Positions 29,998 to 62,468 of a stretch of 64,000 bases of DNA are shown piece by piece. Each line of letters begins with the position of its first letter. The stretch's first letter is position 1. The DNA is from Escherichia coli. Its GTDB lineage: Bacteria > Pseudomonadota > Gammaproteobacteria > Enterobacterales > Enterobacteriaceae. The DNA is taken from assembly GCF_003334335.1 (NCBI RefSeq), contig NZ_QOWQ01000001.1; one strand, written 5' to 3'. The translations under genes and the position numbers were made by a program. The notes below the pieces were generated by a model. The model saw nothing but the letters and a program-made list of their open reading frames with translations, had not been told where the DNA came from and ran no database searches.

Positions 29998-31446
29998 TTA
30001 TTCTCCATGCTCATTTTTCTTCAGCTTGCGCATCAGAAGCCACATACGTACTGTCCTGACTTTTAAATCTTTATCAGAGACGGATTCCTTCACCAGGTCA
30101 GCATGATGCTGATAGCCATTAAAGAAGACGTTCAGCACAACGGCGCTAAGGGTTGCGAGCATAATGCCGCTATGTAGCAGCGGTTGCAGTACGGCCGGTA
30201 ACTTAGAAAAGAAATCGTGAGAGAGCGTCGGAGTCATGCCAACGCCGAGACTGATCGCCACAATATAGAGGTTGTAACGGTTGGTGGTGTAGTTACAGCG
30301 CGACAGAATTCGAATCCCTGTCGCCAGTACCATGCCGAACATCACTAGACCAGCGCCGCCCAGCACAAATTGCGGAATGGAGGCTACCAGCACCGCCATT
30401 TTTGGCACCATGCCAAACAGGATTAATATAATTCCCGAAGAAATACACACCCAGCGGCTATGAACGCGCGTCACGCTAACCAGGCCAACGTTTTGAGAAA
30501 ATGACGTGTGGGGGAAGCTGTTAAACGTGCCGCCTATCATTGTCCCTACGCCATCGACACGCAGCCCGCGAATAATATCGTGCGAAGAGAGTTTACGACC
30601 GACTATTTCACCCAGTGCCAGGAACATCCCCATCGACTCGATAAACACGATGATTAACACGGCAGTCATGGTCAGAATGGAAACGGGATCGAAAATCGGC
30701 ATACCAAACGACATCGGCGTAACAATCGCAAACCATGAAGCATCATGTAGCCCGGATAAATTGACTTCATTCATCATCCACGAAAGTAAAAAGCCAAATA
30801 CAATCCCCAGTAATACGGCGACGTTGGACATAAATCCTTTCGCATAGCGAGTAATGAGCAAGATAAAAATTAAGACGGCAAAGGAGATACCTAAATAAAC
30901 GGGATTACCATATTGCGGATTCCCTTTACCTCCGGCGGCCCAGTCAATACCCACCTGAATGATGCTAAGCCCGATAGAAGTAATAACCACACCGGTAACC
31001 AGTGGCGGGAATAAAGGCATCAAGCGACCGATAAGTGGCGCTAATAATGTGGTGATAAAACCCGCGGCGATAGTGGCACCAAATATCCCCAGCAGGCCGA
31101 TATCCGGGTTCATCCCAATGGCTATCATTGGTGTTACAGCAGCAAAGGTCACCGACATAATCACCGGCAGGCGGATCCCCATAAAGCGGCCGATACCGAT
31201 ACATTGCAATAATGTGACGATCCCGCAGCAAAAGAGATCCGAGCTAATGAGCATCGCAATAGCTTCTTTTGAGAGGCCCAGTCGGTCACCAATCATAAGA
31301 GGAACAGCGACTGCACCTGCGTACATGACAAGGACGTGTTGCAGACCGAGTATGATCAGCTTTCCTGGTGATAATATGCGGTCAACCTCATCAGTTGGGC
31401 GGTCTTGCCCAGAAGATGAGGGAAGTTGGGAATCTATGGCGCTCAT
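29998..31446 (-). CDS. uacT: Nucleobase:cation symporter-2 family uric acid transporter
   Basis: ORF track 29998..31575 (-); start set at internal Met (MSAIDSQLPSSSGQDRPTDE..., 482 aa) preceded by AAGGAGAAACACTG; NAT/NCS2 polytopic membrane protein. Confidence 0.85.
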   Translation of the reverse strand: MSAIDSQLPSSSGQDRPTDEVDRILSPGKLIILGLQHVLVMYAGAVAVPLMIGDRLGLSKEAIAMLISSDLFCCGIVTLLQCIGIGRFMGIRLPVIMSVTFAAVTPMIAIGMNPDIGLLGIFGATIAAGFITTLLAPLIGRLMPLFPPLVTGVVITSIGLSIIQVGIDWAAGGKGNPQYGNPVYLGISFAVLIFILLITRYAKGFMSNVAVLLGIVFGFLLSWMMNEVNLSGLHDASWFAIVTPMSFGMPIFDPVSILTMTAVLIIVFIESMGMFLALGEIVGRKLSSHDIIRGLRVDGVGTMIGGTFNSFPHTSFSQNVGLVSVTRVHSRWVCISSGIILILFGMVPKMAVLVASIPQFVLGGAGLVMFGMVLATGIRILSRCNYTTNRYNLYIVAISLGVGMTPTLSHDFFSKLPAVLQPLLHSGIMLATLSAVVLNVFFNGYQHHADLVKESVSDKDLKVRTVRMWLLMRKLKKNEHGE

Positions 31447-31515
31447 CAGTGTTTCTCCTTTCGCCCGCCAGAGTAAAAAGCAACCGTTTACGTTAATGAA
31501 ACTGTCTAAACACAT

Positions 31516-31530
31516 GCTCGTGGAGTGCCA
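31516..31530 (-). promoter_or_regulatory. Candidate sigma54 (-24/-12) promoter upstream of uacT
   Basis: Reverse strand reads TGGCAC-TCCAC-GAGC: GG and GC at canonical 10-nt spacing, about 70 nt upstream of the uacT start codon. Confidence 0.3.
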
Positions 31531-60199: not shown

Positions 60200-60209
60200 G
60201 ATGTTATCC

Positions 60210-62468
60210 TCAAATCAATCCTGCCAGATGGAACTCTTCATATAACCGTTTTGGCGTCAGCGGCAGTGTATTGATTGCAACACCGGTAGCCATCTTCACC
60301 GCGTTACGAATAGCAGCGGCAACAGGAATTATTGGTGGCTCACCCAGTGACTTATGTCCGTATGCGGATTGCGGCTCATTGATTTCGACGAACGCGCTTT
60401 CCAGTTGTGGCAGATCCGGCATGGTCGGCATTTTGTAATCCAGCAGATTGGGGTTACGGACCACGCCGCTTTTAGCATCGATGATCATCTCTTCAAATAG
60501 CGCCCAGCCAATGCCCATTCCCATTCCGCCGTGTACCTGACCTTCTGCCAGCAGTGGATTAAGAATATGCCCTGAATCATGAACGTTGAGGATGCGGTTG
60601 ATGGTGACTTTGCACAGCGCAATATCGACCGTCAGATCAACAAAGGTACAGCCAAACGCCGGTGGGTTAGTGGTGGTTTTGATGGAGCTTTCAGCAGAGA
60701 GCTGCCCGCCGCGTTCAGGGTGGTAGAAAGCGTCCATCGCCAAATCTTTTAACGACATTAACGGCTCTTCCGGTCGTTCAACCAGCACGATATGGCCTTT
60801 TATCAGGGTCAGATTCATCGCTGACTGATGTAGCATGACTGCGGCGTGAGCGATGATTTTCTCTTTTAATAATAGTGCCGCACTGCGCAGCGCAGGCGCG
60901 GCAACATAGCTCTGGCGTGAGGCAAATGCGCCGGGATCGAACGGCGTAACGTCGGTATCTTGAGTTGAAATAACGCGAACGTCGCTGACCGGAACCCCCA
61001 CGGTTTCTGCCACCATTTGCGAGAAGACGGTGTCGGCACCCTGACCGATTTCCGTCGCGCCGCTTTGCACGTTGATGGTTCCATCCTGATTCATCAGAAG
61101 GCGCGCGCCTGCTATTTCTACGCCGACAGGCCAGGTGTTAGAGGTGTAGCTAAAACAGGCGACGCCAACGCCGCGGCGCAAATTGCCTTGCTGGTTCTGG
61201 CATTCTGCACGGCGTTTTTCCCATTCAAAGATTTTCCGGCCTTTTTCAAGACACTCCGGCAACCCTGCGCTGTAAATACGTTTGCCCGTGAGCGGATTAG
61301 CATCTCCTTCGCGGGCGGCGTTGCGTAAACGAATTTCAACAGGATCAATACCTAACGCTGTCGCGGCGTCATCAAGCATAGACTCAACGGCAAATACGAC
61401 TTGTGGCGCGCCATAACCACGCATCGCACCAGCCGAGGGGAGGTTGGTATAGCAGGTCTTTGAACTGTAAGCGTAGGCACAACGAGGATAAAGGTAAGCG
61501 ACTTTATTCCCCCCCGCAGAAGCGATGGAGTGCCCGTGAGATGCATAAGCGCCGGTGTTAGACAGAACATCCAGACTATAACCTTTCAATGTTCCGTCGC
61601 GGTTCACGCCCATTTGCCCGTCAATGGTAAAAGCGTGGCGGGTACGGGTTGCGAGGAAACACTCTTCACGGCTAAGGGAAACTTTCACCGGAATGCCGCC
61701 AAGCTTGCTGGTCAGGAATGCCGCCATTGGCTCTTCCAGTACATCCTGTTTATTACCAAAACCGCCACCGACAAATGGTTTGATGACTCGTACGCATGAC
61801 CAGGGAATATCCAGCGCCTGACCAACCACGCGGCGAACAATGTGCGGGATCTGGGTGCTGGAAACGATGGTAATTCGCGAGTCATCCTCCATCCACGCCA
61901 GCGATGTTACGCTTTCCATGTGACAATGTTGAATAACGGGGGTCTGATAGTGCCCCTGTACCTGGTAGTCGGCGGCATCGATTGTTTGTTGGACATTACC
62001 CGTCGACATCGTGCTTTGTTTCAGTAAATTGCCACCGTTATGGATTGGTGCAGCGTCTTCTGCCAGCGCCGCTTCTGGCGTGGTGATAACGGGTAATTCT
62101 TGCCACTCAATGCTGACCAATTGCGCCGCTTTTTCTGCCGTGAGTTCATCGCGGGCCACGACGATGGCAACGGCGTCACCATGATGACGAACATGGCGAG
62201 TTAGCAGTGCGCGATCGGCGGTATCGCGCTTGTTTTCGTCAAGTGTCCAGGCATGCCCAGCTGTAGCGAATGGAATATCAGGCACATCTTCCCAGGTAAA
62301 AATCGCCAGTACGCCCGGCAAACTTCTGGCTTGTTCATCATTAATACTTACGGCATAACCATGTGCGATAGGGCTACGTACATATTTCGCATAACACATG
62401 CCCGCCATAACATAATCGTCAGTATATCGTGCCCGCCCGGTGACCTTAGCAATGGCATCGACGCGCAT
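60210..62468 (-). CDS. xdhA: Xanthine dehydrogenase molybdopterin-binding subunit
   Basis: ORF track 60210..62507 (-); start set at MRVDAIAKVTGRARYTDDY (752 aa). Confidence 0.85.
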   Translation of the reverse strand: MRVDAIAKVTGRARYTDDYVMAGMCYAKYVRSPIAHGYAVSINDEQARSLPGVLAIFTWEDVPDIPFATAGHAWTLDENKRDTADRALLTRHVRHHGDAVAIVVARDELTAEKAAQLVSIEWQELPVITTPEAALAEDAAPIHNGGNLLKQSTMSTGNVQQTIDAADYQVQGHYQTPVIQHCHMESVTSLAWMEDDSRITIVSSTQIPHIVRRVVGQALDIPWSCVRVIKPFVGGGFGNKQDVLEEPMAAFLTSKLGGIPVKVSLSREECFLATRTRHAFTIDGQMGVNRDGTLKGYSLDVLSNTGAYASHGHSIASAGGNKVAYLYPRCAYAYSSKTCYTNLPSAGAMRGYGAPQVVFAVESMLDDAATALGIDPVEIRLRNAAREGDANPLTGKRIYSAGLPECLEKGRKIFEWEKRRAECQNQQGNLRRGVGVACFSYTSNTWPVGVEIAGARLLMNQDGTINVQSGATEIGQGADTVFSQMVAETVGVPVSDVRVISTQDTDVTPFDPGAFASRQSYVAAPALRSAALLLKEKIIAHAAVMLHQSAMNLTLIKGHIVLVERPEEPLMSLKDLAMDAFYHPERGGQLSAESSIKTTTNPPAFGCTFVDLTVDIALCKVTINRILNVHDSGHILNPLLAEGQVHGGMGMGIGWALFEEMIIDAKSGVVRNPNLLDYKMPTMPDLPQLESAFVEINEPQSAYGHKSLGEPPIIPVAAAIRNAVKMATGVAINTLPLTPKRLYEEFHLAGLI

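Follow-up and report, generated by a model that had tools for sequence, protein, structure and literature searches.

The closest described counterpart of the locus analysed here is the uric acid/2,8-dioxopurine cluster of Escherichia coli K-12 (b2866–b2888; Liu et al. 2022–2025; Kasahara et al.; Li et al. 2025), and it proves to be the same locus. Our subject is a stretch of 64,000 nucleotides of E. coli DNA (contig NZ_QOWQ01000001.1; hereafter the window, meaning the whole 64 kb), in which a block of purine-related genes runs from uacT through xdhA (29998–62507). Segments 29998–50000 and 50000–64000 match complete E. coli chromosomes at 100% identity, those of the K-12 derivatives C600 and RP437 among them, and the block has the same 22 genes in the same order and the same sigma-54 sites as the K-12 cluster, without any substantive difference. 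An initial annotation of the window, made from its letters, held that the locus had only recently been linked to urate degradation and that most of its enzyme steps were unassigned. The second statement is out of date, and the block itself had been recognized in 2008, when Haft and Self wrote of a region of 23 genes concerned with purine catabolism and linked to selenium; the route has since been reconstituted with E. coli enzymes and every catabolic step assigned (PMC12507026; bioRxiv 10.1101/2025.04.24.650524). The system is thus not new and for the most part solved, its enzyme steps having been established by others in 2023–2025; its significance for health has likewise been established by others, and no new system is added here. 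A candidate enhancer for the regulator YgeV and a cysteine triad in this protein are offered as modest leads for studies of regulation.

Outside E. coli, the urate clusters of Clostridium sporogenes, C. difficile and C. botulinum share with it the YgeX, YgeY, YgeW, YgfK, SsnA, HyuA, molybdenum (Mo) hydroxylase and YqeB/YqeC families. C. difficile has a PydA-like reductase for YgfK and a hydrolase for YgeW/YqeA and lacks the YgfM FAD subunit (PMC12507026), whereas E. coli carries in addition XdhABC, GuaD, three permeases, YgfT/YgfS and CRP sites, all in one 32-kb block. As to control, Nie et al. (2019; PMC6615313) reconstructed in Clostridiales a sigma-54 regulon, 'DioR', whose function was then unknown and which takes in dpaL, ygeW-ygfK-ssnA-ygeY, yqeC-ygfJ-yqeB-xdhC, pbuX and xdhABC. 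The predicted DioR enhancers are TTATCA-N3-TGATAA or TTCTCA-N3-TGAGAA palindromes (PMC6615313, supplementary table), and the clostridial regulon shares with the E. coli locus the type of activator, the sigma-54 promoters and this predicted enhancer, which lies 130–390 bp upstream. More distant parallels are found in reductive pyrimidine degradation (PydA/PydB/PydC), the reduce-ring-then-hydrolyse logic of which is followed by YgfK/SsnA/HyuA, and in the arginine deiminase pathway, whose ornithine carbamoyltransferase, with carbamate kinase, serves substrate-level ATP formation as YgeW and YqeA do here. Unlike in these routes, the substrates here derive from purines (2,8-dioxopurine, ureidomethylhydantoin, diureidopropionate), and YgeW belongs to a distinct, 'knotted' carbamoyltransferase family.

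Gene content of the uacT–xdhA block

Gene calls were carried over from the RefSeq annotation of the collinear strain ML35 (locus L001; window coordinate = L001 coordinate + 15497), and the list of open reading frames of the window is concordant with this transfer. The 22 genes are, in order, uacT, ygfT, ygfS, ghxQ, guaD, xanQ, xdhD, ygfM, ssnA, ygfK, mocA, yqeC, yqeB, yqeA (arcC), hyuA, ygeY, ygeX (dpaL), ygeW, ygeV, xdhC, xdhB and xdhA. In an NCBIfam profile scan the products of all but two of them (20/22; the exceptions are GhxQ and YgeV) exceeded the curated cut-off of the family in question. Neither flank belongs to the purine theme: idi, lysS and prfB border the block at one end, and actS and tRNA-Gly do so at the other. 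Position 29998 is the final base of the uacT stop codon. The initial annotation closed the block at 62468, where xdhA has an in-frame ATG (752 aa) that lies 13 codons inside the ATG at 62507 (765 aa), the start favoured by RefSeq and by the NCBIfam model.

Taken as a whole, the locus is almost certainly the purine and urate catabolic region of E. coli, made up of five functional modules. The initial annotation had recognized such a cluster between uacT and xdhA, and the family matches and unrelated flanks bear it out. For the purine funnel, RefSeq, NCBIfam and Pfam bear out the three permeases for nucleobases, the guanine deaminase and XdhABC; two molybdenum hydroxylases (XdhABC and XdhD-YgfM), the ring-opening amidohydrolases SsnA and HyuA, an M20 hydrolase with a diaminopropionate ammonia-lyase (steps assigned in PMC12507026) and the cofactor genes mocA, yqeC and yqeB, which NCBIfam confirms, are all present. 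Its count of three iron–sulphur (Fe-S) flavoproteins holds for YgfK and YgfT and fails for YgfS, which is a 162-aa ferredoxin that has neither a flavin nor an NAD domain.

A reductive route from urate to pyruvate

The conversion of urate to pyruvate with formation of ATP was worked out in papers that used proteins of E. coli MG1655, and the genes for it all lie on the minus strand of the window. The Mo/Fe-S subunit of 2,8-dioxopurine dehydrogenase is encoded by xdhD (38627–41497; TIGR03313, 2123 bits, cut-off 1102); residues 3–145 of XdhD match XdhC-type Fe-S models, that is, an Fe-S domain is fused at the N terminus. The FAD subunit YgfM (41494–42273; TIGR03312) co-purifies with XdhD, and with NADH the pair strips the 6-oxo group of urate to give 2,8-dioxopurine (PMC12507026). 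The Fe-S flavoenzyme YgfK (43655–46753; TIGR03315, 1779 bits) then reduces the pyrimidine ring of 2,8-dioxopurine, and the amidohydrolase SsnA (42324–43652; TIGR03314, 738 bits, and NF005540), studied in a coupled assay with YgfK, hydrolyses the reduced ring to ureidomethylhydantoin (PMC12507026); the two genes are 2 bp apart. The hydantoin ring is opened by the hydantoinase HyuA (51400–52785; TIGR02033), yielding 2,3-diureidopropionate (PMC12507026), from which the knotted carbamoyltransferase YgeW (55361–56548; NF005538, 825 bits) releases one ureido group by phosphorolysis as carbamoyl phosphate (PMC12507026). The ATP-forming step belongs to the carbamate kinase YqeA (ArcC; 50420–51352; TIGR00746), and YgeW together with YqeA made ATP from ADP in vitro via carbamoyl phosphate (bioRxiv 10.1101/2025.04.24.650524), as had been anticipated for this gene pair in the initial annotation. 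The M20 hydrolase YgeY (52838–54049; TIGR03526) removes the last ureido group to leave 2,3-diaminopropionate (PMC12507026), which the diaminopropionate ammonia-lyase YgeX (DpaL; 54107–55303; TIGR03528) converts to pyruvate and ammonia (PMC12507026; bioRxiv 10.1101/2025.04.24.650524). HyuA, YgeW, YgeY, YgeX and the carbamate kinase all score above their curated cut-offs, and XdhD-YgfM, YgfK, SsnA, HyuA, YgeW with YqeA, YgeY and YgeX together form a module for the anaerobic 'reductive' (2,8-dioxopurine) pathway.

The block had been likened to purine fermentation 'as in clostridia', and in both cases Mo hydroxylases and amidohydrolases are present. The comparison holds for gut clostridia that carry the cluster (C. 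sporogenes, C. difficile) and fails for the classical fermentation of purinolytic soil clostridia (C. cylindrosporum, C. acidurici and C. purinolyticum). The latter is likewise anaerobic and purine-degrading and employs selenium-dependent Mo hydroxylases; it differs, however, in opening xanthine hydrolytically, in proceeding through imidazole intermediates (ureidoimidazole carboxylate, aminoimidazole) to formiminoglycine and glycine, and in the genes involved. Family scans matched none of the 22 products to a xanthine amidohydrolase, an imidazole-ring enzyme, a formiminotransferase or a glycine reductase; the entry intermediate is 2,8-dioxopurine and not xanthine (PMC12507026; bioRxiv 10.1101/2025.04.24.650524); and the classical intermediates were undetected in E. 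coli and C. sporogenes, while the pathway genes of the E. coli cluster are absent from C. cylindrosporum and the two pathways are stated to be distinct (bioRxiv 10.1101/2025.04.24.650524). The classical clostridial pathway is effectively excluded for this cluster, and we see virtually no chance that the block encodes it.

Purine uptake, the funnel into urate and electron input

The reductive pathway is fed by a first module of permeases and purine-converting enzymes, encoded on the minus strand. Guanine and hypoxanthine enter via GhxQ (34325–35692; RefSeq name, Pfam Xan_ur_permease with E = 1.8e-80, and no NCBIfam model), xanthine via the xanthine/H+ symporter XanQ (37062–38462; RefSeq name, NCBIfam pbuX/NCS2) and urate via the urate/H+ symporter UacT of the NCS2 family (29998–31446; RefSeq name, NCBIfam pbuX/NCS2 above cut-off). 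Guanine deaminase (guaD, 35728–37044; TIGR02967/NF006679, above cut-off) turns guanine into xanthine, and xanthine dehydrogenase oxidizes hypoxanthine and xanthine to urate. The latter enzyme consists of the Mo subunit XdhA (60210–62507; NF007426, 1486 bits), the FAD subunit XdhB (59321–60199; NF007427) and the 2x[2Fe-2S] subunit XdhC (58845–59324; full-length match to NF007387). Deletion of xdhA leaves xanthine unconsumed and deletion of xdhD causes urate to build up (PMC12507026), and XdhABC is placed upstream of the urate steps because of these phenotypes. The deletion test of anaerobic purine turnover put forward in the initial annotation has in effect been carried out, with the predicted outcome for xdhA, xdhD and ygfK (PMC12507026). 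The steps of the funnel and of the reductive pathway are established biochemically and genetically by others.

A separate module, on the plus strand, may supply electrons and is putatively linked to formate. YgfT (31882–33801) is a GltD-like Fe-S/NAD(P)-flavoprotein with a putative role in formate-dependent urate utilization (NCBIfam equivalog NF009451, 1506 bits), and its gene is induced by urate (bioRxiv 10.1101/2022.07.24.501321). YgfS (33801–34289) is a HydN-like 4Fe-4S dicluster ferredoxin, which in the NCBIfam scan matches only the ferredoxin portions of the AegA, YgfT and HydN models.

As a separate observation, xdhC is intact in the window (159 aa, full-length model match), whereas in ML35 it has an internal stop and is annotated as a pseudogene (L001, 43348–43827).

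Selenium-linked cofactor maturation

Beside the hydroxylase genes lies the marker set of a selenium-dependent Mo hydroxylase system, every member of which scores above its NCBIfam cut-off: the molybdenum cofactor cytidylyltransferase MocA (YgfJ; 47075–47653, minus strand; TIGR03310), the selenium-cofactor accessory protein YqeC (47756–48526, plus strand; TIGR03172), whose gene holds an intragenic sigma-54 promoter for yqeB, and YqeB (48574–50199, plus strand; TIGR03309), which combines an XdhC-like domain with a selenium-dependent Mo-hydroxylase maturation domain. In this module MocA would make the cytidine form of the molybdenum cofactor, and YqeB and YqeC would act as selenium-linked accessory proteins.

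The names that NCBIfam and RefSeq attach to two of the pathway proteins ('putative selenate reductase subunit YgfK' and 'selenium metabolism protein SsnA'), together with a 2002 genetic report of a part in selenate reduction, which we take as Haft and Self cite it, would instead make the ygfK-ssnA-ygfM-xdhD module a selenate reductase or a general selenium-metabolism system. The biochemistry speaks otherwise, in that purified XdhD-YgfM turns urate into 2,8-dioxopurine, from which YgfK and SsnA give ureidomethylhydantoin (PMC12507026), and mutants build up the corresponding intermediates of the urate pathway (PMC12507026; bioRxiv 10.1101/2025.04.24.650524); the link to selenium is better accounted for by a selenium-containing Mo cofactor. 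As the primary function, selenate reduction is largely refuted and effectively excluded, and we give it hardly any credence.

Sigma-54 promoters and co-expression

Chromatin immunoprecipitation sequencing (ChIP-seq) of sigma-54 in K-12 by Bonocora et al. (PMC4591121) placed sites upstream of xdhA, ygeW, ygfK and ygfT and one within yqeC, and all five are present verbatim in the window. A first scan with the consensus GG-N10-GC had missed the ygeW and ygfT promoters and returned many intragenic near-matches, and the published ChIP-seq list was used in its place. Upstream of ygfT the site is TATGCCCGTTTATTGCA (31819–31835, plus strand; OS32), a weak motif with TG at -24. The promoter of ygfK-ssnA-ygfM-xdhD is GTGGTGCGATTGTTGCT (46826–46842, minus strand; OS31), which is conserved in Enterobacter sp. 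Bisph1, and that of xdhABC is CTGGCGTAAATCTTGCC (62563–62579, minus strand; OS29). The promoter of ygeW-ygeX-ygeY(-hyuA-yqeA), CTGGCACACTTATTGTT (56642–56658, minus strand; OS30), has GT in place of GC at -12, an unusual feature also found in the same Enterobacter strain, and an in-vitro RpoN peak obtained by systematic evolution of ligands by exponential enrichment falls in the ygeW–ygeV spacer. The promoter of yqeB inside yqeC (48157–48173; ChIP site IS34) has been validated by mutation (PMC4591121).

In a compendium of RNA-sequencing data, xdhABC, ygeWXY, hyuA, ygfK, ssnA, ygfM, xdhD, ygfT and uacT make up one 'YgeV' module, and expression of ygfT is lowered in a ygeV mutant. YgeV would accordingly be the control module of the locus, activating the sigma-54 promoters of ygfT, ygfK, ygeW and xdhA; the yqeB promoter within yqeC, which has no palindrome upstream, may be under YgeV control as well. 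The domains of YgeV, the five ChIP-seq sites and the co-expression module are in keeping with the dedicated sigma-54 activator that the initial annotation had seen in ygeV.

Apart from these promoters, a sigma-54-like element, TGGCACTCCACGAGCA (31515–31530, minus strand), lies 69–84 nt upstream of uacT and ~115 bp from the palindrome shared with ygfT (see below). It is a candidate only, and it is absent from the published ChIP-seq list although uacT is a member of the YgeV co-expression module.

A candidate YgeV enhancer at the sigma-54 promoters

A scan matrix built solely from 24 of the published clostridial DioR sites was run over the window, and its four best hits all fell inside the cluster, with one weaker hit upstream of xdhA. 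The best, TTTTCTCATATTGATATTT (31638–31656; 18.1 bits), lies in the uacT–ygfT spacer at about -198 from the sigma-54 start of ygfT and is a candidate YgeV/DioR-type enhancer. A second candidate, AATTCTCATATTGATATAG (56856–56874; 15.7 bits), occupies the ygeW–ygeV spacer at about -233 relative to the start of ygeW, with ygeV ~155 bp downstream of it. A third, CCTTATCATTATGATAATG (47008–47026; 13.0 bits), stands at about -201 from the ygfK start; on the opposite strand its central 17 bases read TTATCATAATGATAAGG, which agrees in every base with the C. botulinum ygeW-ygfK site, ATTTATCATAATGATAAGG. The remaining one of the four best hits, the DioR-type palindrome TTTTCTCAATGTGAGAATG (48398–48416; 15.4 bits), is inside the 3' end of yqeC. 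Upstream of xdhA there are two candidate sites 22 bp apart, TTTATCACATTGATTTT and CACTCATATTGATACG (62673–62713), at about -151 and -129 relative to the start of xdhA, of which the one at 62695–62713 scores 9.7 bits. In the whole 64 kb there are just three exact copies of the 12-mer CTCATATTGATA, one upstream of each of the ygfT, ygeW and xdhA promoters (the ygeW site contains it exactly, and the xdhA copy is at 62677–62688), and the palindrome upstream of ygfK is related to it. At a threshold of 9 bits, one hit falls in each of the four regions upstream of these sigma-54 promoters; shuffled sequences lead one to expect 0.13 such hits, and none of 2000 shuffles reached four. The palindromes of these four regions are positioned 129–233 bp upstream of the inferred transcription starts of ygfT, ygfK, ygeW and xdhA.

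A similar arrangement was seen in other genomes. Among the matches listed in a search of a genome collection, a full-length YgeV homologue of 69% identity adjoins urate-pathway genes in Enterobacter sp. Bisph1 (L002), and full-length homologues of 35–38% identity, from Firmicutes and Fusobacteria, do so in Sedimentibacter, Ruthenibacterium, Clostridium thailandense and Propionigenium. The gene set stands beside the homologue in Enterobacter, Sedimentibacter, Clostridium and Propionigenium, and the short Ruthenibacterium contig shows ygeX only. High-scoring palindromes occur ~70–290 bp upstream of a sigma-54 promoter in all five genomes; in the GC-rich Enterobacter locus there are just two hits in 21.7 kb, one upstream of ygfK and the other in the ygeW–ygeV spacer. 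The Enterobacter strain is the one close enterobacterial relative among the matches listed, too few for a dense footprint of the intergenic regions across enterobacteria; some peptides of the search lie in the conserved AAA+ core and probably account for its many matches. On these comparisons YgeV is likely the E. coli counterpart of DioR, and the TTATCA-N3-TGATAA-type palindromes are likely its enhancers; we take them as its likely binding site because of their position upstream of the four promoters and their presence beside YgeV homologues in three phyla.

Transcription units, CRP sites and the case for co-regulation

The hairpins between genes point to six transcription units or more, namely uacT, ygfT-ygfS, xanQ-guaD-ghxQ, ygfK-ssnA-ygfM-xdhD, ygeW-ygeX-ygeY, which probably continues into hyuA-yqeA, and xdhABC; mocA, yqeC, yqeB and ygeV would be further units. 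Terminator-like hairpins lie after ghxQ (34296–34319), after ygeV (58815–58838) and, strongly, downstream of yqeA in the yqeB/yqeA spacer (50208–50233), and a GC-rich hairpin follows the xdhD stop (38602–38617). Terminator-like sites in general were ~2 standard deviations above shuffles; intergenic hairpins alone were used, and they lend weak support to the operon boundaries. In addition, the convergent yqeB/yqeA spacer (50199–50373) is a dispersed repeat, resembling repetitive extragenic palindromic elements (REP) or bacterial interspersed mosaic elements (BIME), and the median E. coli genome has 22 copies of it.

Such a subdivision would be expected if the 32 kb had brought together by chance several units under separate control (salvage by xdhABC, permeases, cofactor genes, urate pathway) and not a block co-regulated by YgeV; xanQ-guaD-ghxQ and mocA, moreover, have no mapped sigma-54 site or palindrome, and the promoter inside yqeC responds to nitrogen limitation. 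Four of the units, however, have sigma-54 promoters and the same upstream palindrome in common and form one co-expression module, the linkage of YgeV, palindrome and pathway genes recurs in three phyla, and in some isolates an insertion sequence IS1-associated deletion takes out the whole block. Shared promoters, a shared enhancer and conserved linkage make unrelated neighbouring units unlikely, and we regard chance juxtaposition as highly improbable.

Several points nevertheless weigh against the reading of the locus as five modules under YgeV control, or against details of it. With respect to regulation, the palindrome in yqeC lies ~225 nt downstream, and not upstream, of the yqeB promoter, and that promoter is reported to be induced by nitrogen limitation (PMC4591121), which points to a different activator. 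The sites upstream of xdhA are low-scoring (9.7 bits for the one cited above), the activity of the YgeV module peaks with ethanol in baeR or cpxR mutants, which is an unrelated setting, and in the literature that we searched there was no experiment on binding of YgeV to the palindromes and no YgeV ligand. With respect to the enzymes, the product of YgeW is given differently, as 3-ureido-2-aminopropionate (albizziin) by Li et al. (PMC12507026) and as 3-amino-2-ureidopropanoate by Liu et al. (bioRxiv 10.1101/2025.04.24.650524). Dependence of activity on selenium, SelD and YqeB has been shown for the enzymes of C. sporogenes and C. difficile, and no E. coli data were found in the literature. Finally, purified XdhD-YgfM and YgfK run on NAD(P)H alone (PMC12507026), so that the part given to YgfT and YgfS in electron input is tentative.

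Repression by glucose has been reported for the cluster (PMC12507026; bioRxiv 10.1101/2022.07.24.501321), and candidate CRP sites lie between enhancer and promoter at two of the units. At ygfK this is a consensus core, TGTGAATGAACTCACA (46905–46920), the sole perfect TGTGA-N6-TCACA in the window, and at ygeW a CRP-like core with one mismatch (56701–56716); Li et al. replaced 'the native Crp-binding site' in the ygeW spacer (PMC12507026). Judging from their position, these candidate sites for CRP with cyclic AMP may account for the repression. A simple pattern search for IHF-like sites between enhancers and promoters found none, an Rfam scan returned neither riboswitches nor small RNAs within the cluster, and hits in a sigma-70 promoter scan were at the level expected from shuffles. 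The candidate YgeV and CRP sites name the exact bases to mutate, both for tests of control and for probiotic strains that carry no foreign promoters.

YgeV and its sensor region

The activator gene ygeV (57027–58805, plus strand) encodes a sigma-54 enhancer-binding protein with the Pfam architecture GAF - PAS - AAA+ - helix-turn-helix (HTH) (Sigma54_activat 2.1e-70, HTH_8 3e-13); in NCBIfam it matches generic sigma-54-activator models only. An alignment of its homologues shows the GAFTGA loop and, among those of urate loci, a conserved HTH sequence, LGIGIATLYRK. The predicted fold of residues 1–265, made from an alignment of 24 sequences with a moderate predicted local distance difference test score (78.6), comprises GAF and PAS domains and is most like DhaR(N); the protein search with the sensor region gave mostly fragments, and the model supports a DhaR(N)-like GAF and PAS and nothing beyond that. 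Within the GAF-like domain there is a Cys84-x2-Cys87-x5-Cys93 triad followed by an invariant Glu95 (window 57276–57305). The triad is found in 10 of 12 full-length homologues and is missing from two, which do not adjoin urate genes; it may be where a metal or an Fe-S centre is bound.

These features can be assembled into a fuller scheme, in which YgeV, as the counterpart of DioR, would bind the palindromes, the CRP sites would serve as a bending or catabolite-control element, a metal or Fe-S centre at the cysteine triad would sense oxygen or redox state, and the PAS or GAF pocket would sense urate or 2,8-dioxopurine. We put this forward tentatively and consider it, in all its parts, rather unlikely. 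If true, it would explain expression confined to anaerobic conditions, glucose repression and the differing rates of urate consumption among strains whose enzymes are more than 98% identical (bioRxiv 10.1101/2025.04.24.650524).

Distribution, losses and surroundings of the cluster

Gut bacteria that carry the cluster remove urate secreted into the intestine, and E. coli Nissle engineered for its constitutive expression lowered serum urate in uricase-knockout mice (PMC12507026). The xdhD–ygeW core is present to at least 80% in one place in 5149 of 5426 complete E. coli genomes, ~5% being without it. In the urine isolate 103 (L081; NZ_CP020495.1, 13450–14600) an IS1A element stands between uacT and actS, and ygfT–xdhA (~31 kb), equivalent to 31447–62921 of the window, is deleted. 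E. coli E54 shows an IS1-associated partial loss, and A30 has kept just 45 bp.

Outside the cluster the window holds a Sib antitoxin RNA (5848–5998), 6S RNA (ssrS, 6647–6830), naRNA4 (20341–20418) and tRNA-Gly (63756–63826), and prfB with its programmed frameshift (~26531–27629) lies just upstream of lysS.

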